In this document: piece after piece, positions 38,631 through 57,640 of the stretch
Layout of the letters: every line of letters begins with the position of its first letter
How positions within the stretch are numbered: position 1 is the first letter of the stretch
Assembly: GCA_018865545.1 (NCBI GenBank)
Contig: GCA_018865545.1_3633.1
Source of the DNA: a phage
Reading direction: 5' to 3' (one strand)
Length of the DNA stretch: 64,000 nucleotides
Notes under the pieces: model-generated
What the model was told of the DNA's origin: nothing
The model's input: the letters and a program-made list of their open reading frames with translations, nothing else
Database searches by the model: none
Made by a program: the position numbers and the translations under genes

Positions 38631-38641
38631 ATTTTCTCCTT

Positions 38642-42065: not shown

Positions 42066-42092
42066 TGCTTAACTCCTTGAAAAAAAAACATT

Positions 42093-42602
42093 TTAAAATG
42101 CTTCTAATTCAGATTTAAGATCAGCAATCATCTTTTCAAAGGATTTGTTCTTAGTCAGTGTAACACCTTTAGAAAGTGCAAACTCAACTAATCTATCTTT
42201 ACTACCTTTTTTATCAGCTTCATCATTCAGAGACATTGCTTCCTCTAAAATCAGGTCAATAGATAGATTTTCTTTATCATCCTTTTTATCTTGCACTTCT
42301 ACAATCTTGGCATCAACTACCTTACCCATACTATTTGGGCTAGGGATATCTTTGTTGAAGAACACGATATAAGATCCCATACGAATAGTAGAGTGCTGTG
42401 CATCAACATCAAGACCAGACATCTCAGCAAGAGCAGTGAAAAACTCAACAGTGTTTCTGAATGCTTTGTGTTGTGTTCCCACACATAAACCATTCAAAGG
42501 CAGTCTTGCAGATACCGCTGCATTCAATTGTGGTGCATATGCTCCGAAAAACTTAAACAGTTCCACTTTATTAGGGAAAATACGATAATTTTGATTTGCC
42601 AT
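42093..42602 (-). CDS. Hypothetical protein
   Basis: 169 aa ORF downstream of major capsid terminator. Confidence 0.45.
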   Translation of the reverse strand: MANQNYRIFPNKVELFKFFGAYAPQLNAAVSARLPLNGLCVGTQHKAFRNTVEFFTALAEMSGLDVDAQHSTIRMGSYIVFFNKDIPSPNSMGKVVDAKIVEVQDKKDDKENLSIDLILEEAMSLNDEADKKGSKDRLVEFALSKGVTLTKNKSFEKMIADLKSELEAF

Positions 42603-42675
42603 AAAATCTCCTTTTATTCCTTAGTAAAAACCACTTGACAACACAGGATAAGTGGCTATTATTAAGGTCAGAATG

Positions 42676-42709
42676 TGAAAAAAGGGGAGGTGATAATTCA
42701 CCTCCCCTC
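42676..42709 (-). terminator. Rho-independent terminator (minus strand) downstream of major capsid gene
   Basis: ggggaggtga-taat-tcacctcccc hairpin followed on minus strand by tttttt. Confidence 0.65.
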
Positions 42710-42733
42710 ATTAGAGGTAGCATTTAAGCTATC

Positions 42734-43747
42734 TTATGCGAAAGTACCAGTAGAACGCACAACCAGTTCAGGACGGGTGTTAACCGTCAAGAAGGAAGTT
42801 TCAGATTCAACTTTCTCTTCACGCAGATATGCAGAAGATTTGTACCACAGATACAGTTCTTCAGCTACAGTGTTTGCTTCACGAACATCATCTGCCGGAG
42901 CATAGTGGATCTGGAACATATCATCAATACCTTGCGGCAGGATGTATGCTTCACCATCTGGGATATATCCAGAGATGTCTTCAATGTAGGTTACGTTCTT
43001 ATGAACAAACATACGGTTGTTGGCATTCTCAGAACCCATACCCAGACGACGACGCAGCGGCTCTTGGGTAGAAGAATAATACTGGTATGCATTCATGATC
43101 AGCGGATGGGCGATCAGAGCAGAGAACCATTTACGAGAAGCCAGAACAATGATATTGTAGTTATTGCCGTTATCACCTGCATTGTCGATGATGTATGCAC
43201 GAGCGTCTTTCTCAATCAGATCAGACGGGTCAACAGCGACATCTGTGAAGTCGATATTGGCAGTATGCTGGGTAACTCCCCACTCAGTAAAGTAGTTGTA
43301 CTGTGCGGTCGGATCTTGTGGAGACCATGATTTACCCATGATTGCCTGAACCATTGCTTTTTCTTTCAGTTGTTCATGAGAAACGCGAATACGCTTAACT
43401 ACGCGAGCAACTACGTCTTCAACAGTTCTCGGAGCGTCCGTAGTGAAATATTTACGGAAGTTCTGAACATCTGCCGCAGTGATCTGACGATCCAGAGGGA
43501 AGAACGGAATGTTGAAGTTCTTGATTTGAGCTTTTTCACTACCCACATAGTTACGTTCTCCACCACGACGACGTGCAGGAATATCCGCAACAATTTCGTC
43601 AACACGCTCAACACGAGCAATTGTGGTTTCACCATGGTAAGCGGTGAACAGATCCATGTTGGTAATCAGGCGATACTGACGTGGAACAAGTTCCAGTGCT
43701 GCGCCAAGGTTTACGATTTGAAAGTCGTTAGTCTGTACTGCTGCCAT
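42734..43747 (-). CDS. Major capsid protein (putative, HK97-fold type)
   Basis: 337 aa; position after scaffold/protease; visibly higher GC and biased codon use; strong terminator downstream. Confidence 0.6.
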   Translation of the reverse strand: MAAVQTNDFQIVNLGAALELVPRQYRLITNMDLFTAYHGETTIARVERVDEIVADIPARRRGGERNYVGSEKAQIKNFNIPFFPLDRQITAADVQNFRKYFTTDAPRTVEDVVARVVKRIRVSHEQLKEKAMVQAIMGKSWSPQDPTAQYNYFTEWGVTQHTANIDFTDVAVDPSDLIEKDARAYIIDNAGDNGNNYNIIVLASRKWFSALIAHPLIMNAYQYYSSTQEPLRRRLGMGSENANNRMFVHKNVTYIEDISGYIPDGEAYILPQGIDDMFQIHYAPADDVREANTVAEELYLWYKSSAYLREEKVESETSFLTVNTRPELVVRSTGTFA

Positions 43748-43770
43748 TTATAAATTCTCCTTGATGCAAA

Positions 43771-44193
43771 TTAGCTGATAGCCGTTACTTTAATATCTTC
43801 AGAACCATCGTAATATTTATCGGTGATTTTCAGACCTCTTGCCTCAAGAGCTTTAATAGCAGTCTCGTCAATTCCAGTGGAACCGTCGGAGAACACAATC
43901 TTGGACTTATTCAGAGTAACGCCACGAACAGCAACAACAAAATTATATTTGGTTCCTACTTTGTACGGGGTAACTGGCTCGTAAGCAGGTACAAGATCAT
44001 GGTCAACAAGAACACCATAAGCATCCGCACCACTTCCAGAAGCGACCAGAGTACCGTCTTCTTTAACAATCATACCTGCTTTCATACCTGCTGCGTACTG
44101 AATCTCCATTTCCTTGAAGCTATAGCCTTGGTCAGAAGAATCAACTTTACCCAGTACAATGTCAGAGTAGAAACCTTGAATTGGATTAGCCAT
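43771..44193 (-). CDS. Head decoration / auxiliary capsid protein (putative)
   Basis: 140 aa ORF between scaffold and major capsid genes. Confidence 0.35.
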   Translation of the reverse strand: MANPIQGFYSDIVLGKVDSSDQGYSFKEMEIQYAAGMKAGMIVKEDGTLVASGSGADAYGVLVDHDLVPAYEPVTPYKVGTKYNFVVAVRGVTLNKSKIVFSDGSTGIDETAIKALEARGLKITDKYYDGSEDIKVTAIS

Positions 44194-44211
44194 TTATTTA
44201 ATCTCCTCGAA

Positions 44212-45213
44212 TTACGCGTTCATTGCAGCCGCTTCGCGTGCACGGGCGCGAGCTTTTTCTACGTTGGCTTTCAGAATATCTTCAGCAGACTTATTAATGT
44301 CGTCTGTAGCAGCTTCAGCACCGGAACCATGTTCAGCGGTAGCAAATTCTTTTTTCACAGTCTTAACTTCTTCTTCAAGCTCCTGAATACGAGCCTGTGC
44401 TTTTTCCAGAATAGCCACCACAGGAGCATTAGCTTTCTCGATAATAAAGTTAGCCAGTGCTTCATGATCAGAGTCAGCAGCGAAAGTGAAAGTTTTTGCT
44501 TTATTCAGAGCTTCTTTCTTTTCCACTTCAACGGCAGCTTTGATGATTTCATCAGCTTTAGCAGCTTTGGCTTCAGCTTCTTCTAATTTTTTAACCAGAT
44601 CTAGATATTCCTGAGATTTGGTCACATCAACATTATTAGACACTGAGGTCTCCTCTTTTTTCTTGGATTTATCAACTACAGGTTTTGAACCTGCTTCTTT
44701 GACGACCCCAGTCACCTGGAGATCTTTATCATCACCCTCTACGAAAGTGACTCCTAATTCTGCAACACCTTTTTCAAACAATTGTTGTAATTTTAGCAAC
44801 TCATATTGTTTAGCGAGATCTAATTCTTTACCTTCGTGAGCAGCTTTAGCAATTGTTATTGCTTGCACGCGTTCTTCAAGAAATTCTTGATGTTGTGCAT
44901 TCCACGCCACAATAAATTCATCATCAGGGTTTTGCGCCGCATCGTATTCAAGTTCAGTTTCAAAACCAAGAAGTTTTGCCAGCAGTTCTGCATCATCATG
45001 CCACATGTAGAAGAATCTACGCAGAAATTCTTCAAAGCTCATTGTAACAGTTACTTGCTGGAGGGCTTTGATAACGTCTTTAGTAAGCTGCTCAGGTTTA
45101 AGATCAGACTTCATAAGAAGTGATACTGGTCTTAAATTAGCAGAATACCCTTGAAGCTCATGACACAGTGCAATACCCTTCTCCTTAATGGCTTTGGCCT
45201 TTACAATTGTCAT
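44212..45213 (-). CDS. Scaffolding protein (putative)
   Basis: 333 aa, strongly Ala/Glu/Lys-rich coiled-coil (EEAEAKAAKADEIIKAAVEVEKKEALNKAK), upstream of capsid gene. Confidence 0.55.
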   Translation of the reverse strand: MTIVKAKAIKEKGIALCHELQGYSANLRPVSLLMKSDLKPEQLTKDVIKALQQVTVTMSFEEFLRRFFYMWHDDAELLAKLLGFETELEYDAAQNPDDEFIVAWNAQHQEFLEERVQAITIAKAAHEGKELDLAKQYELLKLQQLFEKGVAELGVTFVEGDDKDLQVTGVVKEAGSKPVVDKSKKKEETSVSNNVDVTKSQEYLDLVKKLEEAEAKAAKADEIIKAAVEVEKKEALNKAKTFTFAADSDHEALANFIIEKANAPVVAILEKAQARIQELEEEVKTVKKEFATAEHGSGAEAATDDINKSAEDILKANVEKARARAREAAAMNA

Positions 45214-45899
45214 TCGTCCTCTTCCTCTGTTTCATCTAGATAACCCAGACATTCGATACCGAAATCAACATCTGTTATTTCTCCTGTTGCTGTGTCCACA
45301 CGCCCAGAGCACTGGATGCTTAAACCACCAACAACATTTGCTTTTTTCAAATTCCACAAATCAGGATCATTATACTTAACCTTGGCTACCCATGTTCCTG
45401 CTTTAATTATCTGTTCCGTCCCAATGACCACAACATCCAGTTCTTCTTGAATCCAAGTTTTTTCAATAGTGAATGCATCAGTCTCGCTAAGATGGAATAA
45501 ATTTTCTTTCACCAAACCAGCAGCGAGTGCCTTATCGTAAGATTCTTTTGCCTTTACTATCGTTTCAGGAGACATCCACTCTCCATGGGCATCCTTGGTG
45601 TTTGGCTCATAAATAACCTCATAAGAGATCATTTGTTCCGCATCTTTTTGGATATTAACTACAGATGTTTCTTTATTAAGACTCTTTTTAAGATTTAGAG
45701 ATAAAACTCTCTCAGAAGCCTTTTCTACAGAAATTTCTGGAGAATGGCCTGAAGCAATCAGGCCATTAGCGATATTCAGTATCTTGCTCTTTTGAACAAG
45801 AGACAGATCAGATACTGATGAAGGAAGGTCTTTAATGCTTTTAAATTTCATTATTTCCCCATTAACAGTTATTTTAACATCGTTCTTTTTCTTTTGCAA
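45210..45899 (-). CDS. Prohead protease (putative)
   Basis: 229 aa ORF between portal and scaffold; acidic C-terminal tail ETEEEDE. Confidence 0.4.
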   Translation of the reverse strand: MQKKKNDVKITVNGEIMKFKSIKDLPSSVSDLSLVQKSKILNIANGLIASGHSPEISVEKASERVLSLNLKKSLNKETSVVNIQKDAEQMISYEVIYEPNTKDAHGEWMSPETIVKAKESYDKALAAGLVKENLFHLSETDAFTIEKTWIQEELDVVVIGTEQIIKAGTWVAKVKYNDPDLWNLKKANVVGGLSIQCSGRVDTATGEITDVDFGIECLGYLDETEEEDE

Positions 45900-45920
45900 G
45901 TTATTTCAGAAAGTTGAGTG

Positions 45921-47462
45921 TTAATTCTCTAAATTAGAAACAGAATTATCCCTCACTGTTGATATTTTTGATGTTCCGTTACCTGTTGACCCTGGAGTCA
46001 TCCCATCACCAGAACGACTTACATCCTGACCAAGAATTTGCAACAACTCTTCAAGGTCCATATCTTCTGGGATTTCTTCGTCAAAACCACCAACCTCAAG
46101 AATTTTATTAATAACTGTAGGTGTCTTAGGCAAGTACCCAACAGCACCGATACGCTGAACAAATTTAGAGAAGCCTTCCATATCAACTTCTTGAATAAGC
46201 CCAGGTTTTAATCTTGGCATATCTTCGTCAGACAATCTTATATCGTTCAAAGCAAGAAGTTGAGGTATTAAGTTCTTATTGAACGCCTCAACAATAATAT
46301 CAATATCTCTCTGGACAAAATGACCATGAATAGTTTGTTTTGATTCTGAAAGATTATAAGATCCTTGCCCATCGTTACCTAAGTTAATAAACCCCGCACC
46401 AAAACGATCAAGAATAGCCTTCTTACGAGAGTTAACAAGCTCTTGTGTGCTGTATTGTTTACCTGCGCCATCGATCCCTTTAAGGGACATTTCATATTGT
46501 TTACCACCTTGATTATTGAGGTCAGATGGTAAGATAAAATAGGCTTGTTCCCCAGCGTGTGCGTTTGCAGCATCTGCCATTAGTCCTTGCACCATAGCAG
46601 CTTCTGGTGATGTTGGGTCTATTGCTGCTTTATTAAGGATCTGGGAGGGTATCTTAAGTTCTATGATACCACCAAGATCTTTAGATGCTCCGATAGTCTC
46701 CAAATTTTCTATAAGGATCTTCTCTCGGAATGCCCTATAACAACCAACCAAAGGTGATACCCCAGCAGGGTTGGATTCCGTACCCCCCAAACTCATTATC
46801 ATCAACTTATTAACTGGAATAAAAACATCATCACCATTAGTCAATTTACGGATAATGTTTAAAGTATCCCCCAGCATTCCGTTTTGTAAATTGGAGAAAG
46901 CCAAACTGCTTTGGTTAATGCCCTTCAGCGTCTTACCATCGGCATCAAATACCCAAGGCTTTGATCTAGAAAGACTGCACTGTGGCCTGAATGCAATTTT
47001 ATCAATCGTAATATACCCAGCATACCTTGAAGTCTCTGGCTCAGTACGATAAACTTTTTCAAATATCGAAAACCCATACTCATTGAACGTTGCTGCGCTT
47101 CGGGCTATGTCACGTAGAGTTTGTTGGTTAGCAAGATTCTTCAGTGCATACTCCACAAACTCAGCAGCTTTCTTAGATTTTCTGCTATCTCTGTTATACA
47201 AGATTTTAAAATCATTGAAGGCTTTGGTCACAAAGACATACTTTGTATCAAGGGCTGTGGAAACTGTATGGTCTTGCTTCATAGCTTCAACAGTGGCGAT
47301 GAAATTAGGCCATCTCAACTCCTTAACTTTCATAATCTCTGATTCAGCCCTGAGTTGAGAAAGAGCACCGGAGCCTAATTCTCCGGTACGAAGACGACTA
47401 ACAGCAAGTCTCTCATTACCTGCTTTAGAAATCTCTTCTTGTTGTGCAAATCTTGTTGACAC
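45921..47462 (-). CDS. Portal protein (putative)
   Basis: 513 aa ORF immediately downstream of terminase large subunit, size typical of portals. Confidence 0.6.
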   Translation of the reverse strand: MSTRFAQQEEISKAGNERLAVSRLRTGELGSGALSQLRAESEIMKVKELRWPNFIATVEAMKQDHTVSTALDTKYVFVTKAFNDFKILYNRDSRKSKKAAEFVEYALKNLANQQTLRDIARSAATFNEYGFSIFEKVYRTEPETSRYAGYITIDKIAFRPQCSLSRSKPWVFDADGKTLKGINQSSLAFSNLQNGMLGDTLNIIRKLTNGDDVFIPVNKLMIMSLGGTESNPAGVSPLVGCYRAFREKILIENLETIGASKDLGGIIELKIPSQILNKAAIDPTSPEAAMVQGLMADAANAHAGEQAYFILPSDLNNQGGKQYEMSLKGIDGAGKQYSTQELVNSRKKAILDRFGAGFINLGNDGQGSYNLSESKQTIHGHFVQRDIDIIVEAFNKNLIPQLLALNDIRLSDEDMPRLKPGLIQEVDMEGFSKFVQRIGAVGYLPKTPTVINKILEVGGFDEEIPEDMDLEELLQILGQDVSRSGDGMTPGSTGNGTSKISTVRDNSVSNLEN

Positions 47463-47477
47463 GAATTATCCCCTCTG

Positions 47478-48263
47478 TTATATTCTTTTATACAAGGTAG
47501 GAGCTACAATTTTTGGAATAACAACAGGTTTGACTATTTCTTCTTTTTCAAGATAATTTATCCCAGAAGAAATGGCGTCGACCCAATCGTCTTTTCTTGT
47601 CGTAGTACTCCTTTCCCCATTGAACTTTTCAAGCTCTGTCATAAGGGCTTCATAAGTTTTAGGATCAAAACTATCACGAACTATTCTCACCATACCTGCT
47701 TGAGCAAGTTTTGCAAACGGTGTGAATCGTGTTAATTTTGATTTATTGCTTGGTGTAGGATCTTTTTCTACTGTAAACCCTTCCGCTATTAATTCACGGG
47801 AGCTTGTTAAAAATTCACTTATTCCTGCTTGTCCTGGGTCAACACTGAAAATTATAGTGACATCATCACCATCAAAATAAGCCTGTTTCTTAATGATAAC
47901 ATCACGTTCCCCAGCTTTTTTACAGAATCTTCCCTGCGTTTGAGTCGAATATCTACCATCATCAAAAAATTCAGGACAATAATCACCAGACAAGTAGTAA
48001 AAGCCATCATTGTCTTTACTTACCTTAACAGATGCTGTAAAGTCAGGATATCTGTTTCCAGATGTTCTTTCTGTACCTGCTTTATCATACGGGCGAACAG
48101 ATACAACACCGAGAGGTAAGCAGGGAACCTCTTTTAAATAAGATCTCTGGAAATAGTTTGCCCCTTCAGGTCTTGCGTTCCAGTTCCCATGCAACAACTG
48201 GGCTTTTTCTACCTCTGGAAGACCTTCAAGGAATGCTAGATAATCTGGGTTATTCTCCAGCAT
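47478..48263 (-). CDS. terL: Terminase large subunit, last exon (nuclease domain); true 5' edge a few codons upstream
   Basis: VTIIFSVDPGQAG and RKDDWVDAISSGINYL resemble RNase H-like nuclease motifs of large terminases; in-frame stop about 27 nt upstream of first Met marks the limit of the open frame. Confidence 0.65.
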   Translation of the reverse strand: MLENNPDYLAFLEGLPEVEKAQLLHGNWNARPEGANYFQRSYLKEVPCLPLGVVSVRPYDKAGTERTSGNRYPDFTASVKVSKDNDGFYYLSGDYCPEFFDDGRYSTQTQGRFCKKAGERDVIIKKQAYFDGDDVTIIFSVDPGQAGISEFLTSSRELIAEGFTVEKDPTPSNKSKLTRFTPFAKLAQAGMVRIVRDSFDPKTYEALMTELEKFNGERSTTTRKDDWVDAISSGINYLEKEEIVKPVVIPKIVAPTLYKRI

Positions 48264-49250
48264 GGGAGGATTATCGAATCCTTGTATTCAAGGTTGGACG
48301 CAACGCCAACCCCCGCACCACTACGTGCTGCTGCATGTCACCATGCAGAGTAGACTATATCACCACCCACACATAATGGGTGCTTCGCTTTTCGAACGCC
48401 ATTAGCTTGCGATCTACTCCCTTGCGGGATAGTCGTTGAACTACATTACCATTCATAGTTGTTTGAGATATAGATGTAAGTTTTTCTATCTTTTATTCTT
48501 CTAACAAGATTAAAACTAACACCCCATTTTTTAGATATCTTATTAATGCTTAGGATACCGTCTCTCAGATCTTCACATATCCCTATAACTTTGGATTCAC
48601 TAATTCTGTTGGAAGAAGGAACCATCCTGAAATTAAACTCTTTAGAAATGTCTGGGTAGACTCTCCCAGCTTTGATACTACTAACCACAGTCTGCCCAAT
48701 ACCAAACATCTCACTGATATCCTTTACTCTAGCACCCTGCTCAAGTAATCTGCATATCTCAAGGGCAGTGTTATCATCAAGAGGCCTGTAACTGTTTACA
48801 TAAGACTTCTTAAGCCCTATTTCATGTGCGTGATGTGTGTTTTCCTTTGCAGTTGTCCACTCAAGATTCCACGCTGCGTTATTAAGTTTGTTTCCATCTA
48901 AATGGTTCACTTGAGTTTTTGTATCAGGGCTATCATTCTCGACAAAAGCAAAAGCAATAACCCTATGGACAAGAACTTGAAACTTTTTACCATCCTCACA
49001 CAACGTTAACATTGCATAGCCAGTTTTCTTATGGACATTAGGATGTAAAAATTTGTGGGAATACAAACTATAAATTCTTCCATCATACGTCGCACAATAA
49101 TGGGAATACCCTAAAAATCCTAAATTTTTCATCTCAAACATTCTCCCTACTACAGTTTCGGAAAAGTAATTATAGCTGCTGATTGCCCTTATACAAAGGG
49201 TTTCCCAGCAATTAACGAAGTTATTCGACATGCATTACTGCATGAAGCCA
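48264..49250 (-). mobile_element. Group I intron-like insertion in terminase gene with HNH ORF (5' boundary unresolved)
   Basis: R GUUCAACGACUAUCCC (revcomp of 48426-48441) and S GAUAUAGUCUACUC (48335-48350) on minus strand; HNH ORF upstream of R; 3' segment repeated at 49606-49650. Confidence 0.5.
48446..49231 (-). CDS. HNH homing endonuclease (HNH_3/NUMOD-type), intron-encoded
   Basis: 261 aa; NLGFLGYSHYCATYDGRIYS N-terminus, LVHRVIAFAFVENDSPDTKTQVNHLDGNKLNNAAWNLEW core, HTH-like GIGQTVVSSIK. Confidence 0.75.
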   Translation of the reverse strand: MSNNFVNCWETLCIRAISSYNYFSETVVGRMFEMKNLGFLGYSHYCATYDGRIYSLYSHKFLHPNVHKKTGYAMLTLCEDGKKFQVLVHRVIAFAFVENDSPDTKTQVNHLDGNKLNNAAWNLEWTTAKENTHHAHEIGLKKSYVNSYRPLDDNTALEICRLLEQGARVKDISEMFGIGQTVVSSIKAGRVYPDISKEFNFRMVPSSNRISESKVIGICEDLRDGILSINKISKKWGVSFNLVRRIKDRKTYIYISNNYEW

Positions 49251-49572
49251 CTATTCTTTTAATGGTTGCGGAAATGAAGGAAAATGAAAGTGGTTTAGGC
49301 TTTCTTTTCTCATCCTTGCCATCCCAATACTTTTCAATTAATTCTTGCTCTGATTCACCCCAGATAAACTCCCCGTCACGTCTTATAAACCATCTAATCA
49401 CCCCGTCACGTTCAGGTATAGGATACCCCTCATCGTCTAAATACCAAGAAATCAACTCCTTAATCTTATGATCTGGATCAGGGTTACAAGAGATAACCAT
49501 CCTACTCGGGTATTTAGAGTTTGAACGTAGACGAGATATCAGATAATCTATCTGTGACCATGTGAATTGTGT
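49189..49572 (-). CDS. terL: Terminase large subunit, middle exon (ATPase domain C-terminal part); 3' limit is the ORF stop, real 5' splice site lies somewhere upstream of it
   Basis: Reading frame opens at 49572 after intron terminal G (49573): TQFTWSQIDYLISRLRSNSKYPSRMVISCNPDP, the post-Walker B R-x-R and (S/T)xNP region of large terminases. Confidence 0.5.
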   Translation of the reverse strand, partial: TQFTWSQIDYLISRLRSNSKYPSRMVISCNPDPDHKIKELISWYLDDEGYPIPERDGVIRWFIRRDGEFIWGESEQELIEKYWDGKDEKRKPKPLSFSFISATIKRIVASCSNACRITSLIAGKPFV

Positions 49573-49922
49573 CGTTTTTGTTCAGATAAGATCGCTACTC
49601 TTATCCCGCACCACTACGTGCTGCTGCATGTCACCATGCAGATCAGACTATATCTTGTGTGTTATTACACACCCCCCCTGTTTCGGCGGTTGATAATCAA
49701 CCGGAGGTTTCCCTCACCGCTTGGCCCTAACGCCCGTAAGCGATAGTCGTTGAACGTTCATCCCGTAGGGATGCTTCGCTGCGGATTGTCTAAACATTCA
49801 CACTGTTACTATACTCAACGTCATTACCGTTGACCATAAATATGTTACCATACCTACTTAGTGGTGATATGTATAAAGAGTTACCCGTCAATTAAAGGGG
49901 TTTATAGAGAGCACACTGTTCT
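49573..49922 (-). mobile_element. ORF-less group I intron in terminase gene
   Basis: Minus-strand P AAUUGACGGGUAAC (revcomp of 49880-49893), Q AAUCCGCAGCGAAG (49774-49787), R GUUCAACGACUAUCG (49741-49756), S AAGAUAUAGUCUGAUCUG (49636-49650); preceding exon ends in U, intron ends in G. Confidence 0.5.
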
Positions 49923-49955
49923 ACCCTCATCGAAACCTATAAAGGTATATTGCAA
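49923..49955 (-). CDS. terL: Terminase large subunit mini-exon (Walker B region), inferred
   Basis: Minus-strand frame LQYTFIGFDEG, hydrophobic run plus DE = Walker B-like, in frame with exon starting 49572 to give ...FIGFDEG-TQFTWSQIDYL...; bounded by intron-like sequence on both sides. Confidence 0.4.
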
Positions 49956-50194
49956 CTTATTGTCCCCTCAGTTCGCTACACTGAGGCGGTGTGCTAAAAC
50001 ACCCGCCACATGTTTCCATGTGGAACAGACTATATCTTCCATCCTTGGCGTGCCGTTTGGATCACCAATCGCTTGTGATTCTACTCTCCTACACTCATCG
50101 GAGATAGTCGTTACACCCAGAGTTTATATTTCCATATTCTGTGGCACGGTATTTTCCCATAGGGAGTTCCACCGTTATAGGCACGAAGGGCAAG
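49956..50194 (-). mobile_element. Group I intron-like element (3' core only recognisable) between terminase exon 1 and mini-exon; 5' boundary unresolved
   Basis: R (50095-50110) and S (50025-50040) elements; 85 bp at 49956-50040 nearly identical to the 3' end of the tape-measure intron (30772-30856); no P/Q recognised. Confidence 0.4.
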
Positions 50195-51277
50195 CTATTC
50201 ACCCTGATGATCTAATTTGTTATTCTCATACTCCATGTGTCTCCACAACACCTTTGCCCCAGATGGGAAAATTGCTTCCAGAGCTTTCTCCCTGAACTTC
50301 GGCTTCCATTCCTTATCGAGTTGCAAATAAATACTTTTCGCTGTATCAAAAAGTCCACCTGCACCTGTCAATTGAGGTGTTGTCCTACGAAACATTATAC
50401 ATGCTGTCTGCGGGTCATCGACATAAGCAAGCGGCATCAATTGTAGGAGATATGATTTTCCACTATTCCCAGTGACAACCACACAATCTTCCAGTCTGGT
50501 AACAAAGAAACCTGTTTGTGTTACAAAGCAGTATTTAAACCCATCCGTAGGTATAAACTCTTTAAGCTCAACTTTCTCTTTATCGTTTAATGCTCTTAAT
50601 GACCCGCCATTAACGTTTACATTAACAATGTACTCTGAGCCAATCTTCTTCAAAGAAGATTCACAATCGAAGCAGGAAACAACAAACTGGATAAAATCAG
50701 CAGTGGATTTGTTACTGGAAGAATACATACCACCTTGTGCTATAATGGCATCCATGATTACATCAAGTTGATGCCTTGAGCAGTTATAATAGTCCTCTGT
50801 TATCTCACCACACAACACTCGCTCTCTGATTGTTTCATCATCCAAATCCAAACCTGCACCAGAATAATTGAATGTTGTGATAAATTTTCCTTCCCAACCA
50901 CCGCTAGAATTTTTATGTGTCTCCGCAATTTCCGAAAATAATTGCGTTTTTGGTGGGGTATGGTAATCTTCTTTAAACAGGACAGTGTGTTCGTCAGATA
51001 GCTCTTGACAAATGCCATTACCTTCTATTCTTGTAAGTTTTTCGCAAGGGAGTTTAACAAACTCTAAAGGAGGGATAAATTTAGCCTCCCCAGTGGCTTT
51101 ATCATATTGCAGAATGTCCTGCCCTGACCATTCTGATATCTTAATCCAGCCAGATGGTGTCAACACCTCGTGGTCTTTAGACAAACACCCGGCGGCCCCG
51201 CCAATTATTAGAATTTGGGCTTTACTCTCCAAAATCATTTTTTGTTTAGGACTGGCAGGTCCAAATACTTTACTCAA
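50195..51277 (-). CDS. terL: Terminase large subunit, exon 1 (ATPase N-terminus) containing an intein in the Walker A motif
   Basis: 360 aa ORF; N-extein ...ILIIGGAAG, C-extein SGKSYLLQ... join to GGAAGSGKS Walker A; 3' end of ORF probably runs into intron. Confidence 0.7.
   Translation of the reverse strand: MSKVFGPASPKQKMILESKAQILIIGGAAGCLSKDHEVLTPSGWIKISEWSGQDILQYDKATGEAKFIPPLEFVKLPCEKLTRIEGNGICQELSDEHTVLFKEDYHTPPKTQLFSEIAETHKNSSGGWEGKFITTFNYSGAGLDLDDETIRERVLCGEITEDYYNCSRHQLDVIMDAIIAQGGMYSSSNKSTADFIQFVVSCFDCESSLKKIGSEYIVNVNVNGGSLRALNDKEKVELKEFIPTDGFKYCFVTQTGFFVTRLEDCVVVTGNSGKSYLLQLMPLAYVDDPQTACIMFRRTTPQLTGAGGLFDTAKSIYLQLDKEWKPKFREKALEAIFPSGAKVLWRHMEYENNKLDHQGE
50465..51187 (-). other. Intein (about 241 aa) inserted in terminase Walker A P-loop
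   Basis: Starts with Cys (CLSKDHEVLTPSGWIKI, block A-like), ends ...VVVTGN followed by Ser; host Walker A is complete only after excision. Confidence 0.6.
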
Positions 51278-51372
51278 AAGACCTCCATATTTTCTATTCC
51301 TACCATAGAAGGTAGTTTACCACGAATAACGATAAAAATAAAGCCCTTATCATTAAATAAGGGCATTGTCAA

Positions 51373-51666
51373 CTACTTATCTGAAGAAAATATTGTCTTC
51401 ACATACTGCTGTAACGTTCTTAATTTCATACGATCTTCAGCAGCCTTAATGTTGTTTTTCTTAATCACCTCGATAGCATCTGCATTACTAAGACCACCTG
51501 GCAATTTTTCAGGTTCTTTCGGTGGTATCATAGCCTCAGCGGGTGGTCTTGCTAAGATATCGCTTATTATGATCTCTTTTGCAACAGGAACAACTCTCTC
51601 AGGTGGTGAAGTGCACCCTGTTAACATAAACAATAGAAGAGGAACCATGATAACATACTTTTTCAT
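51373..51666 (-). CDS. o-spanin (outer-membrane lipoprotein, Rz1-like)
   Basis: 97 aa; signal peptide with lipobox LTGC, Pro-rich mature region; 4 nt overlap with upstream i-spanin-like gene. Confidence 0.55.
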   Translation of the reverse strand: MKKYVIMVPLLLFMLTGCTSPPERVVPVAKEIIISDILARPPAEAMIPPKEPEKLPGGLSNADAIEVIKKNNIKAAEDRMKLRTLQQYVKTIFSSDK

Positions 51667-52064
51667 TTAGACCCCAAACTGTCGTTATAGATATCAACAA
51701 ACTGGTTATCGAGGCAAACCTGTTTTCCTGCTTGTGTTTTGCTATAACTTTTAACCTTTTTATCAAGGTCTTCTTTCAGTTGGTTATTAATTTCTCTCTC
51801 TTTCACCAACATGGTTGACAACTCATCGATCTTATCCTGCTGTTGTTTTTTAAAAGCGTTATTACGATCCAGAACTTGCTGGTTAACCCTCTCCCATTTA
51901 AGATCCGTGTCGCTGACACCTGCGTTGTAGGACGATGTTAACTGGTCATTATACCAATGTTTTATCCCCAAGATACCACAGACGAGAACCACACAACACA
52001 AAACAACACCTATCTGTTTTATGTTCTTAGAAAAGAAAGTTAACAGCGTTTTAAACCATATCAT
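51663..52064 (-). CDS. i-spanin (Rz-like, N-terminal TM + periplasmic coiled coil)
   Basis: 133 aa; hydrophobic IGVVLCCVVLVCGILGI then charged coiled-coil region; paired with downstream lipoprotein. Confidence 0.5.
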   Translation of the reverse strand: MIWFKTLLTFFSKNIKQIGVVLCCVVLVCGILGIKHWYNDQLTSSYNAGVSDTDLKWERVNQQVLDRNNAFKKQQQDKIDELSTMLVKEREINNQLKEDLDKKVKSYSKTQAGKQVCLDNQFVDIYNDSLGSK

Positions 52065-53609: not shown

Positions 53610-53682
53610 TTGCGAGTATTGGAATCGAACCAATCTGGACTGGCTTATGAGACCAGCGAAGTCACCAGACTTCAAACTCGCA
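53610..53682 (-). tRNA. tRNA-Met (anticodon CAU; could also be Ile-lysidine type)
   Basis: Manual fold: acceptor TGCGAGT/ACTCGCA, D stem GAAG/CTTC, anticodon stem CTGGT/GCCAG, loop CTCATAA, T arm ATTGG-TTCGATT-CCAAT. Confidence 0.75.
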
Positions 53683-53686
53683 ATGT

Positions 53687-53917
53687 TCATTTATTACCAA
53701 GAGAAATCCTTCTAGGTGGATGACCAAAATGGATCTCATAAGTGCCATCAAGTCTTCCTTTCTTTGTCCGACAATATTTATCTACTTTCTTGTAGTTCTT
53801 CACTTCTTGAGTAGTATACCTAGAATCGGCAATAAGTAGAATAAGAGGCCACCCAGCACAAAATTTTCTAACTGTCTCTATTTTTTGGATATATGCACTC
53901 TTCAATTTTCTTCGCAT
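53687..53917 (-). CDS. Hypothetical small protein within tRNA cluster
   Basis: 76 aa ORF between tRNA genes. Confidence 0.3.
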   Translation of the reverse strand: MRRKLKSAYIQKIETVRKFCAGWPLILLIADSRYTTQEVKNYKKVDKYCRTKKGRLDGTYEIHFGHPPRRISLGNK

Positions 53918-53935
53918 GATCTATTTCCTGTTTGG

Positions 53936-54008
53936 TGTGACGGACAGGGTTCGAACCTGTGACCACCTAGTCTTCAGCAAGGCACTCTACCAACTGAGTT
54001 ACCGTCAC
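53936..54008 (-). tRNA. tRNA-Phe (GAA)
   Basis: Acceptor GTGACGG/CCGTCAC, D arm ACTC-AGTTGGTA-GAGT, anticodon loop CTGAAGA, T arm ACAGG-TTCGAAC-CCTGT; CCA encoded. Confidence 0.8.
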
Positions 54009-54016
54009 ATGATTGG

Positions 54017-54090
54017 TAGGCGATGAGGGACTCGAACCCCCAAAATTCAGGTTCTAAGCCTGACATGTATACCAATTCCATCAATCGCCC
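54017..54090 (-). tRNA. tRNA with anticodon UAG (Leu by anticodon) but short variable arm, atypical
   Basis: Acceptor GGGCGAT/ATCGCCT (G1-U72), anticodon stem TCAGG/CCTGA, loop CTTAGAA, 5 nt variable region, T arm GGGGG-TTCGAGT-CCCTC; CCA encoded. Confidence 0.5.
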
Positions 54091-54104
54091 ATTTATATCA
54101 ACAG

Positions 54105-54296
54105 TTATGGTTTTCCACGATACACAGAAATAGTTTTCCCATTGGCATTGATAACATAAGCTGTCTGATCCTCAGACAAAAACACTTTTTGGTCAATACC
54201 TGAAATAGCTATAGACTTTTGATGAGCACAATACCCAACAATTTTCCCACAAAAAATTTGTTCATCATTTGGAGATACGACTTTAACTGTTAACAT
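54105..54296 (-). CDS. Hypothetical small protein within tRNA cluster
   Basis: Start moved to internal ATG 54296 because the annotated N-terminus overlaps tRNA-Pro. Confidence 0.3.
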   Translation of the reverse strand: MLTVKVVSPNDEQIFCGKIVGYCAHQKSIAISGIDQKVFLSEDQTAYVINANGKTISVYRGKP

Positions 54297-54341
54297 GGTA
54301 TCCTCTGTACATTTCTGCTTTGATATGTATATGTTTGTTGG

Positions 54342-54416
54342 TCTGTCCGGTTGGATTTGAACCAACGACCTGATCATCCCAAGTGACCCGCGCTACCCAA
54401 GCTGCGCTACGGACAG
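54342..54416 (-). tRNA. tRNA-Pro (UGG)
   Basis: Acceptor CTGTCCG/CGGACAG, D arm GCGC-AGCTTGGGTA-GCGC, anticodon stem GGTCA/TGATC, loop CTTGGGA, T arm GTTGG-TTCAAAT-CCAAC; CCA encoded. Confidence 0.8.
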
Positions 54417-54503
54417 AGAAATGTAGATTTTAATTGTCCCAGAATCTACTAACTGGTATCGCTGGCTAGGTGATATCTGTGACTTGATTAAGTCAAGAAT
54501 TGG

Positions 54504-54591
54504 CGGTTCCTGAAGGATTCGAACCTTCGGTGGGGAGATTCCTCCCAACGGCTTAACAGGCCGTCACCATCGACCACTCGGTCAAAGAACC
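54504..54591 (-). tRNA. Type II (long variable arm) tRNA with anticodon GUU (Asn by anticodon), atypical
   Basis: Acceptor GGTTCTT/AGGAACC, 3 bp D stem with GAGTGGTCGA loop, anticodon stem ACGGC/GCCGT, loop CTGTTAA, variable hairpin GGGAG-GAAT-CTCCC, T arm GAAGG-TTCGAAT-CCTTC, discriminator G, CCA encoded. Confidence 0.5.
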
Positions 54592-54603
54592 AGAATATTT
54601 TGG

Positions 54604-54677
54604 TGGATCTGGTTAGATTCGAACTAACAATCCCTCGATTAAAAGTCGAGTGCCTTAAACCATTTGGCTACAGATCC
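54604..54677 (-). tRNA. tRNA-Lys (UUU)
   Basis: Acceptor GGATCTG/CAGATCC, anticodon stem CTCGA/TCGAG, loop CTTTTAA, T arm GTTAG-TTCGAAT-CTAAC; CCA encoded. Confidence 0.75.
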
Positions 54678-54907
54678 TTTAAATTATCTTTAAAATAGCT
54701 AATTACTCGCACATAATTAGCTATACGCAACAGCCCTCTAGGGAGGGCACACTAATGATAGATTACGATTACATGACCATCATGAGTGTTTGACTTACGC
54801 CAGTAAAGAGCGGACTGCTCTGGGGTATCGGTAAAGTGGTTACCGCCACTTGCCGAAGATTTACTCTGCTAAAGTAAGAATAACAAGCTACATTAAAGAT
54901 AACTTGG

Positions 54908-54993
54908 AGGAGGCTGACAGAATCGAACTGTCACCATATCTCTACAGCGGGACTGGGTTCAAACCAGCTTGTGCACCATGCACCCCAGCCTCC
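54908..54993 (-). tRNA. tRNA-Ser (UGA), type II, atypical D arm
   Basis: Acceptor GGAGGCT/AGCCTCC, anticodon stem GCTGG/CCAGT, loop TTTGAAC, long variable region, T arm GACAG-TTCGATT-CTGTC; D region forms a tight GTGCA/TGCAC hairpin; CCA encoded. Confidence 0.55.
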
Positions 54994-55074
54994 AAAAATT
55001 GCCTCTGCCGAGAATATACACCCAACAAAGACGGCGCTCAGGTCCGAAGAAATCTGAGCCTTGACATACAGTGG

Positions 55075-55165
55075 AGGAAGATGCCAGACTTGAACTGGCA
55101 CACCCATTTCTGGGTTACTATCTCCTTAGCAGGGAGACCCCTTACCAAATTAGGGTTAATCTTCC
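55075..55165 (-). tRNA. tRNA-Ser (GCU), type II
   Basis: Acceptor GGAAGAT/ATCTTCC, anticodon stem TCTCC/GGAGA, loop CTGCTAA, long variable arm, T arm GCCAG-TTCAAGT-CTGGC; CCA encoded. Confidence 0.65.
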
Positions 55166-55189
55166 AATACCTTAGTAATTAAAAACTGG

Positions 55190-55276
55190 CGGAGAAGGAG
55201 AGAATCGAACTCTCAAGCCGTTTTACCAGTCAGCACATTTCCAATGTGTTTTCGTCGCCAATCGATTTGCTTCTCC
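55190..55276 (-). tRNA. tRNA-Ser (GGA)-like, type II, tentative
   Basis: Acceptor GGAGAAG/CTTCTCC, T arm GAGAG-TTCGATT-CTCTC, candidate anticodon loop TTGGAAA with imperfect stem; CCA encoded; D arm not well resolved. Confidence 0.45.
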
Positions 55277-55288
55277 GTTTTAACTTGG

Positions 55289-55361
55289 CAGGGGATGGTT
55301 GATTCGAACAACCGATCACGGGGTCAAAGCCCGTTGCATTAGGCCACTATGCTAATCCCCT
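55289..55361 (-). tRNA. tRNA-Gln (UUG)
   Basis: Acceptor AGGGGAT/ATCCCCT, D arm GCAT-AGTGGCCTA-ATGC, anticodon stem ACGGG/CCCGT, loop CTTTGAC, T arm GGTTG-TTCGAAT-CAACC; CCA encoded. Confidence 0.8.
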
Positions 55362-55365
55362 TTTG

Positions 55366-55444
55366 CACGAGAGTGAGGAATCGAACCTCTTAGTCACTGG
55401 TTTTGGAGGCCAGCCTTCACCCAGTGAAGTTACGCTACTCTCAT
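55366..55444 (-). ncRNA. tRNA-like sequence, unassigned
   Basis: Acceptor-like pairing ATGAGAG/CTCTCGT and T arm GAGG-TTCGATT-CCTC, but central region forms a long CACTGG/CCAGTG helix instead of canonical D and anticodon arms. Confidence 0.3.
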
Positions 55445-55450
55445 TAAAAA

Positions 55451-56008
55451 CTATTTTCGGAAAGGACTTATGAAAAATGCCAACATCACTCTCTCTCTTG
55501 AAAAAGCTCTGTCTTCAGGAACCACACTCTTCAGTTTCCAACCGACATAAATTCGCCAGTAAAATTGTTTTCCAAACAATCTAAAAGACGGGACAAACGC
55601 GAATACACCCCACGCATTGTCATTCCACATCAACAAATAGCCTTGTTGATTATCCTCCACATCAGAGCTTACATGGATGTTTCCTTTCCACTTTGTCACA
55701 GATGTGATTTCACGTCCAAGTGCGTGATAGGAGAAATTGTAGGCTTTATTTCTCCACAACCAAGCAACTCGTTGCAGATAAACACCAAAACTCCCTATCT
55801 TACGAACTTCTGCCCATCTCTCTATGTGTCCTTTATCACCATCTATAGGATTATCATATGTTTCCATCCACCTGAAAATATAAGGTAGATGCCCTGTCTT
55901 CTCATTATAGAACGGAACAACAAAAGGAGCCAGAATAACACAGAGAACCGACATAACTGGGTCAAGAGGTGCTAACAGAATCCACGATAAATATTTCAAG
56001 TATCTCAT
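55451..56008 (-). CDS. Hypothetical membrane protein
   Basis: 185 aa; N-terminal hydrophobic helices (LSWILLAPLDPVMSVLCVILAPFVVPF); Trp-rich. Confidence 0.45.
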   Translation of the reverse strand: MRYLKYLSWILLAPLDPVMSVLCVILAPFVVPFYNEKTGHLPYIFRWMETYDNPIDGDKGHIERWAEVRKIGSFGVYLQRVAWLWRNKAYNFSYHALGREITSVTKWKGNIHVSSDVEDNQQGYLLMWNDNAWGVFAFVPSFRLFGKQFYWRIYVGWKLKSVVPEDRAFSRERVMLAFFISPFRK

Positions 56009-56235
56009 GCAGGATCAAGCCTAGATATAATGTACTGGTTTAAATCTGAATATGGGAAGATACTTTCAAAGATAACCTGTTTAAATCTGAAACCGCACAA
56101 ACCGAAAAGTACCTTCTGACACTCCCCAAAAGAACAATCTTTACCAACTTTTATCACAACCGTATCGGCAACCTGCACACTTTCTATCTCTTTAGGTTCA
56201 TGATGCCGTACTATGATTACTTTAGAAACCATCAT
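56005..56235 (-). CDS. Hypothetical protein
   Basis: 76 aa ORF overlapping downstream gene start by 4 nt. Confidence 0.4.
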   Translation of the reverse strand: MMVSKVIIVRHHEPKEIESVQVADTVVIKVGKDCSFGECQKVLFGLCGFRFKQVIFESIFPYSDLNQYIISRLDPA

Positions 56236-56363
56236 ACTCGTCCGTATTAAAGCCTTCTACTATAGATAGTAGATGTCTAGGGTTGGACCGCAAACTCAAC
56301 CCCATGGAATTTGTTACGGTCTTCAGTTGACCCAAGCGGATTTCATTGACATCTTTTAACTGG

Positions 56364-56435
56364 AGCATCCAGAGGGTATCGAACCCTCGACTACAGCTTG
56401 GAAGGCTGTAGTTTTCCCAATTAAACTATGGATGC
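56364..56435 (-). tRNA. tRNA-Gly (UCC)
   Basis: Acceptor GCATCCA/TGGATGC, D stem GTTT/AAAC, anticodon stem ACAGC/GCTGT, loop CTTCCAA, T arm GAGGG-TTCGATA-CCCTC, discriminator U as expected for Gly; CCA encoded. Confidence 0.8.
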
Positions 56436-56443
56436 ATATTTGG

Positions 56444-56516
56444 TGGGAGTGGTAGGCTCTGCCCCTACGTCCTCTCGATTATCGGTCGAGCGATCTACTA
56501 ACTGATCTACACTCCC
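56444..56516 (-). tRNA. tRNA-Ile (GAU) with unusual T loop
   Basis: Acceptor GGGAGTG/CACTCCC, D arm GATC-AGTTAGTA-GATC, anticodon stem CTCGA/TCGAG, loop CCGATAA, T stem GTAGG/CCTAC but loop GGCAGAG lacks TTC; CCA encoded. Confidence 0.6.
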
Positions 56517-56587
56517 AAACTGTACTGACCCAACAACCACGATTGGAGGGTATCGTCACACATCAAAGCCAGTACAGATTCAGTTGG

Positions 56588-56674
56588 TGTGCCGTGATAG
56601 AGTCGAACTACCCGAGTCCCTTTCGAGACAGGAGATTTACAGTCTCCCCCGCTACCCCTACGGTCTAACGACAC
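56588..56674 (-). tRNA. tRNA-Tyr (GUA), type II
   Basis: Acceptor GTGTCGT/ACGGCAC, anticodon stem GGAGA/TCTCC, loop CTGTAAA, long variable arm, T arm GGTAG-TTCGACT-CTATC; CCA encoded. Confidence 0.65.
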
Positions 56675-56675
56675 A

Positions 56676-57023
56676 TTAACCTTGTTTGAATTGAACAATA
56701 TCCGTCGAGAATGGTTTAGCTGCCTTAATAGGAGCTTTTTCTGAGTTATCTTTTTCGAGTAACTCTTCGTTTTCCTCATCAAAGTAATCAGAAAGCATCT
56801 GCTCACCTTTCTCAATAACATAACGAGCGATATTTTCTCTGATATTGTCTTTTGTATTCACATTCTTCATCAAATCCCTAAGAACCTGATGAGCTTCAGG
56901 AATCATTGCAATCAGATTCGTTTTCAAATCTAGGATATTTTTCTCTAACTGAATTGCATTAGATTCCTCTTTCAGAGGACGACCTTTCCCTCTTCTACGT
57001 TTTGTAAGCTGCTTAGTAGCCAT
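56676..57023 (-). CDS. Hypothetical protein
   Basis: Start moved to internal ATG 57023 (MATKQLTKRRRGKGRP...) because the annotated 5' part overlaps tRNA-Cys. Confidence 0.45.
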   Translation of the reverse strand: MATKQLTKRRRGKGRPLKEESNAIQLEKNILDLKTNLIAMIPEAHQVLRDLMKNVNTKDNIRENIARYVIEKGEQMLSDYFDEENEELLEKDNSEKAPIKAAKPFSTDIVQFKQG

Positions 57024-57111
57024 TTTAAAACCCCACTTAATGATATTATCAAATAAAAACATATCTGTCAAGTGGTATTTTAACATATTTACCAAGAAAT
57101 TGAAAGTTTGG

Positions 57112-57185
57112 AGCACGGTGTCGGACTTGAACCGACATATATCTGTTTTGCAGACAGATCCGTAACCAAATTCCGGCAACCGTGC
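57112..57185 (-). tRNA. tRNA-Cys (GCA)
   Basis: Acceptor GCACGGT/ACCGTGC, anticodon stem TCTGT/ACAGA, loop CTGCAAA, T arm GTCGG-TTCAAGT-CCGAC, discriminator U as expected for Cys; CCA encoded. Confidence 0.8.
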
Positions 57186-57264
57186 AATAAGTACCCCGAG
57201 TAGAGAACCTATAGAGTGGGTCTTACGAGCCGCGCTGACGATTCTCAAGTTGGGGTTAATCTGG

Positions 57265-57338
57265 TCGAGGAGACAGGATTCGAACCTGTGACCTACGGCT
57301 TAGAAGGCCGCTGCTCTATCCAACTGAGCTACACCCCG
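57265..57338 (-). tRNA. tRNA-Arg (UCU)
   Basis: D arm GCTC-AGTTGGATA-GAGC, anticodon stem GCGGC/GCCGT, loop CTTCTAA, T arm ACAGG-TTCGAAT-CCTGT; acceptor has one U-U mismatch; CCA encoded. Confidence 0.7.
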
Positions 57339-57635: not shown

Positions 57636-57640
57636 ATTGG

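Follow-up and report, generated by a model that had tools for sequence, protein, structure and literature searches.

A large terminase gene very probably interrupted by an intein and three group I introns in an rV5-like Escherichia coli phage

Anatomy of the terL locus

The stretch of DNA analysed here, which we call the window, comprises 64,000 nucleotides (nt) of a phage genome (NCBI GenBank assembly GCA_018865545.1, contig GCA_018865545.1_3633.1) and contains, at 47478-51277 on the minus strand, the gene for the large terminase subunit, terL. The limits of the gene, from a TTG start to the stop codon and with all insertions included, were drawn from the open reading frames (ORFs), from the alignment of the conceptual spliced product and from the Pfam families Terminase_6N and Terminase_6C; the same TTG is annotated as the start of exon 1 in Escherichia phage 24-2-1. 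We consider it very probable that terL is an intact essential gene carrying four independent homing-type elements, an intein and three group I introns, all of them within the ATPase domain. The analysis establishes the anatomy of the locus and its homologies, the empty sites, the fold of the intein and purifying selection on the coding sequence.

Read in the direction of transcription, and all on the minus strand, the gene begins with exon 1 (51277-50201, 1077 nt), which contains the intein. The N-extein part of this exon, codons 1-30 (51188-51277), ends in ...IIGGAAG according to the alignment of the spliced product; the intein itself (50465-51187, 241 residues) starts with Cys1, ends in Thr-Gly-Asn241 and is followed by Ser+1, taking up codons 31-271 between G30 and S31 of the mature P-loop; and the C-extein part, SGKSYLLQ...LDHQG (50201-50464), has its 3' end set by an empty site in phage Av-05. 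Group I intron 1 (49956-50200, 245 nt, without an ORF) was placed by the same empty site together with a match to the Rfam model RF00028, a U.G pair in P1 and a terminal G. It is followed by exon 2, a mini-exon of 33 nt or 11 codons (49923-49955, LQYTFIGFDEG) delimited by empty sites on both sides and by alignment, and then by group I intron 2 (49573-49922, 350 nt), which is td-like, again without an ORF, scores above the RF00028 gathering threshold, has an empty site in 24-2-1 and lies at the site of the first terL intron of phage rV5. Exon 3 (49262-49572, 311 nt), placed by alignment and by the rV5 sites, runs from TQFTWSQ to SFISAT and ends with AT of an isoleucine codon. Group I intron 3 (48280-49261, 982 nt), in which an HNH ORF is looped out after the P4-P6 region, was assigned from partial RF00028 matches, from its position at the site of the second rV5 intron, and from a U.G pair in P1 and a terminal G. 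Its ORF encodes a predicted HNH homing endonuclease of 228 residues starting with MKNLGF (48446-49132, with an alternative ATG start at 49141), recognised through Pfam HNH_3 and helix-turn-helix (HTH) models and through PHROG 59. Exon 4 (47478-48279, 802 nt) supplies the A of the isoleucine codon and continues with FDNPPMLENNPDYL through the nuclease domain to the stop codon, as indicated by alignment and by Terminase_6C.

Much of this arrangement had been proposed in a preliminary description made from the letters of the sequence, and most of it stands. The insert of about 241 residues that it saw between a Cys and an Asn inside the P-loop corresponds to codons 31-271 (C...TGN, then S), and its claim that the Walker A motif is formed only when the insert is removed agrees with the exact split GGAAG/SGKS (here and below, a slash marks a junction). 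The coding pieces, and the HNH ORF between the last two of them, are present in the ORF table. Three sets of group I core elements had been described, and RF00028 matches were obtained for all three introns (for intron 3 most strongly through its homologue in Av-05); the limits given for the ORF-less intron at 49573-49922 are exact, as the 24-2-1 empty site attests, and so are those of the 11-codon mini-exon bearing FIGFDE. The overall claim of four selfish elements in one essential packaging gene is borne out by a gap-free product, the Rfam matches, natural empty alleles and evidence for a Hint fold.

From its hhhhDE pattern, exon 2 was assigned the Walker B strand and the catalytic Glu, a label based on motif reading and Pfam; a phmmer search of the mature TerL against PDB gave no match at E <= 0.01. 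We had also considered that intron 3 might lie inside the ATPase C-motif, but dropped this idea in favor of a better C-motif candidate, ISCN at residues 156-159, in exon 3.

The conceptual spliced terminase

Joining the four exons gives a 2223-nt ORF encoding a precursor of 740 residues, and removing codons 31-271 leaves a protein of 499 residues. At least 80% of this protein is covered by 1220 phage records in tblastn, where the best uninterrupted TerL match, that of Salmonella phage SPLA5a, aligns in one piece with 100% coverage and 86% identity. In a three-way alignment with the TerL proteins of SPLA5a and KpS8 over residues 1-499 there are zero gaps at all four junctions (GGAAG/SGKS, HQG/LQYTF, FDEG/TQF and SATI/FDNPPML), and the flanks are the same as those of SPLA5a everywhere, with KpS8 differing at two positions only. 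The preliminary description had suggested a profile search of the spliced protein, and as far as the terminase is concerned its expectation of a Terminase_6 match held: Terminase_6N scores 87.5 bits (cutoff 22; E 1.3e-24) over profile positions 1-213 of 215, whereas the unspliced fragments reach only E 0.01-0.03, and Terminase_6C scores 32.5 bits (cutoff 22.6). Comparison of the spliced coding sequence (CDS) with that of SPLA5a yields nonsynonymous and synonymous values (pN and pS) of 0.10 and 0.82, respectively, and terL is therefore under strong purifying selection.

A different way to account for a fragmented but conserved gene would be that the pieces are translated separately and assemble non-covalently, with no RNA splicing. 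Precedent for this comes from Aeromonas phage Aeh1, where nrdA is split by a homing endonuclease. Consistent with such a scenario, the GenBank records of relatives annotate the pieces as separate, unconnected 'terminase large subunit' CDSs (the intein being annotated in none), and an in-frame ATG happens to sit near the start of exon 4. Exon 2, however, is only 33 nt long and has no start codon, yet it bears the Walker B Asp-Glu; exon 3 starts with TQF and lacks a 5' start codon, its first ATG-initiated ORF beginning 24 codons in; the insertions show group I cores bounded in the canonical way by U and G; and the true start of exon 4 lies 16 nt upstream of the ATG and includes a conserved FDNPP. 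We consequently regard separately translated fragments as very improbable and favor a gene reassembled by splicing, for which the exact map given here would enable a joined CDS to be annotated.

Splice junctions and empty sites in relatives

By BLASTN, Av-05 is colinear with the window save for a missing segment at 49956-50200, and 24-2-1 is colinear save for a missing segment at 49573-49923, which reading of the junction refines to 49573-49922. At the first of these sites Av-05 reads CATCAGGGT/TTGCAGTAT where the window reads CATCAGGGT(GAATAG...AATAAG)TTGCAATAT, and at the second 24-2-1 reads GATGAGGGA/ACACAATTC where the window reads GATGAGGGT(AGAACA...AAAACG)ACACAATTC. It is from these comparisons that intron 1 was set at 50200-49956 and intron 2 at 49922-49573. 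The first intron had earlier been given as 49956-50194; the intron is real but its boundary was off by 6 nt, since the Av-05 empty site assigns GAATAG to the intron.

The junctions of intron 3 read GCAACCAT/TAAAAG...ACAAGG/ATTCGAT and split an isoleucine codon as AT/A. We place this intron at 49261-48280 because this is the sole in-frame join of exons 3 and 4 that follows a U and ends in G. An HNH-containing intron was rightly recognised in the preliminary description, but its limits (48264-49250) were off by 11-16 nt; they were rejected because the 5' splice site would then not follow a U and the product would lose the conserved FDNPP, which is restored when exon 4 begins 16 nt upstream of the ATG that had been used. 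The intron sites of rV5 are identical to those of introns 2 and 3 (GATGAGGGT/...AAACG/ACACAA and GCAACCAT/...ATAAGG/ATTCGAT); rV5 terL has neither the intein nor intron 1. With base-exact empty sites for the introns available in Av-05, 24-2-1 and SPLA5a, a chance origin of the terL insertions is excluded.

The group I introns

At the gathering score of RF00028 (50 bits), Rfam recognises one intron in terL, intron 2, which scores 66.3 bits with a match at 49624-49950 on the minus strand that extends over model positions 1-253. A sensitive scan of 47000-51600 (4.6 kilobases, kb) added lower-scoring matches for introns 1 and 3, given below. The ORF-less homologue of intron 3 in Av-05, which is about 96% identical to it in the shared parts, scores 71.2 bits; the endonuclease cassette (48442-49174) is missing from that copy, and the presence of the cassette is thus independent of that of the intron. 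All three introns are preceded by an exon U and end with G, and RNAfold of the 5' junction regions gave in each case a P1 hairpin with U(-1) opposite G. Past the 5' splice site, an in-frame stop codon follows after 1, 6 and 23 codons in introns 1, 2 and 3, respectively.

The 3' core of intron 2 (nt 267-347, P7-P9) is approximately 83% identical to that of the T4 td intron, and introns 2 and 3 have an identical 38-nt core stretch in common. Intron 1 is rare, being found in the phage collection in only four near-identical records of the 24-2-1 type, and is partly similar to an intron in the RNA polymerase gene of PhiPA3. The HNH ORF of intron 3 scores 30.4 bits with Pfam HNH_3 (cutoff 24.8), also matches HTH_23 and HTH_7, and belongs to the PHROG 59 HNH endonucleases (E 1.8e-48). 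Judged by these domain matches, intron 3 is the only one of the elements that keeps a plausible mobility enzyme (HNH plus HTH).

The stretch common to introns 2 and 3, TCTGCATGGTGACATGCAGCAGCACGTAGTGGTGCGGG, lies in the P9 region and forms a direct repeat at about 49643-49606 and 48350-48313 on the minus strand, some 1.3 kb apart and flanking exon 3. Recombination between the two copies could cause a lethal deletion, and the repeat could also give rise to assembly errors.

The intein: family, fold and decayed endonuclease

As an in-frame insertion (C31...N271/S272 in the precursor), the intein is missing from rV5, SPLA5a and KpS8. Homology searches returned inteins at the same site of TerL with lengths of 329, 328, 241, 240 and 152 residues, and related inteins of 326-334 residues in a PhoH-like protein and in two other proteins with a P-loop-like motif. 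In an alignment of nine members, conserved N-terminal (about 110 residues) and C-terminal (about 32 residues) splicing regions surround a variable centre. Invariant in all nine are C1, E66-H67, D215-G216, K218-Y219-C220-F221 and T239-G240-N241; position +1 is Ser in eight and Cys in one (the metagenomic intein P0011). Block B of the window intein reads S64-D-E-H67, with Ser in place of Thr (one member has Thr), and aligns to S-P-N-H of PDB entry 6ZGQ.

Hint-domain similarity within residues 31-271, without which the preliminary description would have withdrawn its intein, was found by two routes. A profile of the family matches the AceL NrdHF-1-1 intein (6ZGQ) with E 4.5e-6. In addition, an AlphaFold2 model built from the nine-sequence alignment (predicted local distance difference test, pLDDT, 88.9; predicted template modelling score, pTM, 0.85) retrieved by Foldseek, as its top 50 PDB matches, 50 inteins, bacterial intein-like (BIL) domains or hedgehog HINT domains, the best being 7QST, the endonuclease-containing PhoVMA intein (E 1.1e-7). 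A single-sequence model (pLDDT 33) was discarded, the alignment of nine being needed for a usable one.

The 329-residue relatives have two LAGLIDADG-like motifs, LQVAVMADG and ILDEIFHWDGS, with weak matches only to Pfam LAGLIDADG_3 among the relatives (E 0.068 and 0.0046). In the window intein the first motif is gone and the second, IMDAIIAQGG, has lost its catalytic acidic residue; its homing endonuclease is therefore decayed and most likely dead.

Aligned with the 24-2-1 allele at the DNA level, the window intein is a mosaic. Its 5' third, the upstream flank and the start of exon 1 are 90% identical, its 3' part, the remainder of exon 1 and intron 1 are 98% identical, and the central endonuclease region (50576-50857, 282 nt, versus 2046-2588, 543 nt, of our 24-2-1 locus L001) gives no alignment. 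The pattern suggests recombination or independent decay inside the intein.

Three metagenomic inteins, P0009, P0010 and P0011, align with about 55% of the window intein at 36-44% identity. Their hosts are a PhoH-like protein, an unidentified protein with a Walker A-like G/SGKT, and a protein with a guanylate-kinase-type match (PF00625). Their LAGLIDADG domain looks intact, and the insertion site is always G/[S/C]GK (A/CGK in P0011). The window intein is also matched by PHROG 32482 (PhoH-like), with E 4e-11.

With respect to the protein-splicing step only, a class-3-type route has to be considered as a rival to the standard class 1 route; in it, the first attack on the N-terminal junction would come from Cys220, and Cys1 would not be needed. 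The intein has class-3-like traits, namely V69, a block-F Cys220 lying 21 residues before the terminal Asn, and T239 at position -2; these residues are invariant and at corresponding spacing, and they go together with Gly for the penultimate His and with the prevalence of Ser+1. Moreover, among inteins of solved structure the one nearest to it in sequence is the class 3 AceL NrdHF intein, which has an unusual M-C-T triplet and Ser+1 and lacks the penultimate His (PMC7891396), and a few inteins with the WCT triplet are known that have Cys1 or Ser1 (PMC2807308). On the other hand, Cys1 is present in every one of the nine members, the Trp of the WCT triplet is missing, and C220 was placed at block F position 4 by spacing and by eye only; a search of PDB with a profile of the C-terminal 38 residues, made to place Cys220 against Cys124 of 6ZGQ, gave only spurious matches to toxin B repeats. 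In our view a class 3 route is rather doubtful.

Polymorphism and integrity of the locus

The four elements vary among related phages. SPLA5a and KpS8 terL have none of the four; rV5 has introns 2 and 3; Av-05 has the 241-residue intein, intron 2 and an ORF-less intron 3; 24-2-1 and TH18 have a 329-residue intein with introns 1 and 3; and the window has the 241-residue intein with introns 1, 2 and 3.

Such a distribution could also raise the suspicion that the window represents a terL pseudogene in a defective phage, or an assembly chimera of alleles. In support of this, no record in the phage collection has the full set of four elements, the nearest each being without one; the Av-05 record, furthermore, appears to be rearranged in the terL region. 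Against it stand the intactness of every exon under strong purifying selection and the conservation of the intein's catalytic residues and of the intron core motifs. The junction of intron 1, exon 2 and intron 2, for which IMG/VR gave no match when scanned by exact pattern, recurs in an independent Logan contig, from SRR27048311. At 96% identity this contig follows the window over 51400-49700 without rearrangement, taking in the intein, then intron 1 and exon 2, and finally the first 223 nt of intron 2, and an assembly chimera is disfavored for that reason. A dead or chimeric locus is thus, in our estimation, highly unlikely, and an intact gene with four elements remains our preferred reading.

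The irregularity in Av-05 (NC_025830) is the inversion, with respect to the remainder of terL, of one block made up of exon 3 together with the 3' end of intron 2 before it and the ORF-less intron 3 after it; this is why one of its 'terminase' CDSs is annotated on the opposite strand. The breakpoints of the inversion fall in core sequence common to introns 2 and 3, and it is probably a misassembly at this repeat.

Comparison with known systems

One of the closest described parallels is rV5, for whose terL (ORF64ABC, NC_011041) a division into three segments and a homing endonuclease have been reported (Kropinski et al. 2013, PMC3606486). It is the same gene in the same subfamily, with introns at the sites of introns 2 (FDEG/TQF) and 3 (SAT-AT/A-FDNP) of the window, the second of which holds an HNH ORF homologous to that of the window; it differs in that exon A runs uninterrupted through GGAAGSGKS and NHQGLEYT. 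The resemblance of the intron 2 core to that of T4 td (subgroup IA2) crosses gene boundaries, the host gene being a different one. The td intron carries the I-TevI ORF in a peripheral loop, comparable to the placement of the ORF in intron 3; that endonuclease, however, is of the GIY-YIG and not the HNH type, and introns 1 and 2 of the window have no ORF.

In Pectobacterium phage CB7, splicing of an HNH group I intron in terL was shown by reverse-transcription PCR (RT-PCR) and cDNA sequencing (PMC7344957). As in the window, the gene is a Vequintavirinae terL and the HNH-carrying intron adjoins Walker B, but CB7 has a single intron and no intein. We had considered whether the RT-PCR-validated intron might be one of those in the window; this is ruled out by its site, FIGVD/EG, 6 nt upstream of that of intron 2. 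Lying between the Asp and the Glu of Walker B (KY514263; 385-1350 of our CB7 locus L007), it marks a fourth intron site in Vequintavirinae terL. Up to three introns have been described in terL genes of the Bastillevirinae (PMC11878797).

Precedent for introns and an intein in one gene comes from nrdE, which has three introns and an intein in Brochothrix phage A9 and an intron and an intein in Bacillus phage SPbeta (PMC3653736). The A9 gene resembles window terL in being a single essential phage gene with the same count of elements; the nrdE cases differ in that they concern ribonucleotide reductase, Gram-positive hosts and unrelated elements. For mycobacteriophages, TerL is the commonest intein host, the intein often being in the P-loop, and splicing is efficient (Kelley et al. 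2016, PMC5050341). Those inteins, like that of the window, occupy the Walker A loop of the TerL ATPase domain, but their hosts are of the Terminase_1 type, the site is at or next to GK/T, and introns in the same genes have not been reported; the window intein resides in a Terminase_6-type TerL at G/SGKS, two residues upstream.

AceL NrdHF-1-1 (6ZGQ) is the closest sequence-profile relative of the window intein and its second-best fold match. Both have S-x-x-H in block B, Thr at -2 and Ser+1, both place an internal Cys about 21-22 residues ahead of the terminal Asn, and both lack a penultimate His. AceL NrdHF-1-1, however, is naturally split, has Ala1 and has no endonuclease domain, whereas the window intein is contiguous, has Cys1 and contains a decayed LAGLIDADG region.

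Genes with several introns and an intein, introns in terL and P-loop inteins in TerL are thus already documented, and current concepts are unchanged by our findings. What is new is the combination of four elements in terL, the rare intron 1 and an intein lineage that targets P-loops and is invisible to Pfam. The locus offers a compact natural series for the homing cycle and for interference between adjacent selfish elements, spanning inteins of 329, 241, 240 and 152 residues, the presence and absence of intron 1 and of intron 2, and copies of intron 3 that have or lack the HNH cassette; the series sits in an essential gene in which two introns are merely 33 nt apart. Furthermore, the occurrence of Cys1 together with class-3-like residues, in a divergent lineage that standard Pfam models miss, poses a small testable question of mechanism.

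Proposed expression pathway and mobility

Very probably, terL is transcribed as a single pre-mRNA from which the three td-like introns would self-splice, by guanosine-initiated transesterification at the U.G pair of P1 and use of the terminal G, joining exons of 1077, 33, 311 and 802 nt into the 2223-nt ORF. This would be translated into the 740-residue precursor, and the intein would then excise itself, with Ser+1 and with Cys1 and/or the block-F Cys220 taking part and Asn241 undergoing cyclisation, rebuilding the P-loop GGAAGSGKS and giving the 499-residue TerL. RNA splicing and protein splicing would both be obligatory for a viable phage, because the Walker B mini-exon would otherwise be unexpressed and the P-loop would otherwise be split by 241 residues.

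Several considerations weigh against this picture: (i) neither the exon 1 ORF nor the intein by itself, the 329-residue relative or any of the nine family members was matched by Pfam intein and Hint models, so that the part of the earlier profile-search proposal that looked to such models failed; (ii) the penultimate His of block G is replaced by Gly240 in an invariant T-G-N, although the AceL NrdHF intein is functional without this His (PMC7891396) and other residues take its place in some inteins (PMC2807308); (iii) intron 1 reaches only 33.9 bits with RF00028 (E 4.8e-6; 50006-50256, minus strand), under the gathering score; (iv) intron 3 is likewise under it, at 31.6 bits (E 2.3e-5; 48331-48522, minus strand, with a weak 5' partner at 49064-49271), a low score that we attribute to the inability of the covariance model to bridge the 733-nt endonuclease cassette; and (v) the terL intron for which splicing was demonstrated, that of CB7, occupies a different site from intron 2. 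For the window phage we infer RNA splicing, protein splicing and endonuclease activity from the features described above.

Since introns 1 and 2 have no ORF and the endonuclease of the intein appears decayed, three of the four are probably passengers that cannot move, or that can do so only with enzymes provided in trans. Across the subfamily, terL has at least five insertion sites: the P-loop intein site, HQG/LQY, FIGVD/EG, FDEG/TQF and SATI/FDNP. One could combine these observations into a broader proposal, which taken as a whole we consider unlikely, that the ATPase domain of terL is a live homing arena in this subfamily, in which elements are kept up by co-conversion and the intein belongs to a P-loop lineage with hybrid or class 3 splicing. 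On this proposal terL may not be a graveyard, and elements may be gained and lost independently among phages that are about 96-99% identical here. Introns 1 and 2 and the intein with its dead endonuclease may persist by co-conversion on breaks made by the HNH enzyme of intron 3 or by the products of such intein alleles of co-infecting phages as are intact. The intein, for its part, may represent a Pfam-invisible lineage targeting P-loops (G/[S/C]GK in TerL, PhoH-like proteins and other nucleoside triphosphatases), joining Cys1 to Cys and Thr residues of the class 3 type and splicing by a hybrid or class 3 mechanism.

Genomic setting and further candidate introns

The genome in the window is that of a myovirus of the subfamily Vequintavirinae, near the genus Avunavirus, and can be described as an rV5-like E. 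coli phage. Its structural block (30000-47400) matches Escherichia phages 18-1-2, 19-1-2, 24-2-1 and vB_EcoM_TH18 with 94.9% identity across 92% of the block, and Av-05 with 93.6% identity. On one side terL is flanked by Rz-like spanin genes (51373-52064) and on the other by an ORF (45921-47462) homologous to rV5 ORF 64; gp64 of rV5 has been named the portal protein (PMC3606486). Upstream of the block of spanin genes and terL lies an array of approximately 16 transfer RNA (tRNA) genes (53612-59518, minus strand), and rV5 terL adjoins a similar array.

Two other genes in the window are split. In the DNA polymerase gene, ORF 3013-5094 corresponds to PHROG 17 positions 667-1071 and ORF 5811-6458 to positions 1072-1233; between them, at 5095-5810 on the plus strand, is a candidate group I intron (RF00028 at 5572-5775, 46.8 bits, E 9e-9, just under gathering) that carries an HNH ORF (5190-5675), and a further, free-standing HNH-like ORF is found at 6430-7068. 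In the tape measure gene, ORF 31591-32901 corresponds to PHROG 5255 positions 1-431 and ORF 29651-30682 to positions 460-800, with a candidate group I intron between them at 30683-31590 on the minus strand (RF00028 at 30822-31037, 32.3 bits, E 2e-4); its HNH ORF (30942-31517) belongs to PHROG 59, the same family as the enzyme of terL intron 3. With two more candidate introns carrying HNH ORFs, the phage therefore appears to be heavily colonised overall.

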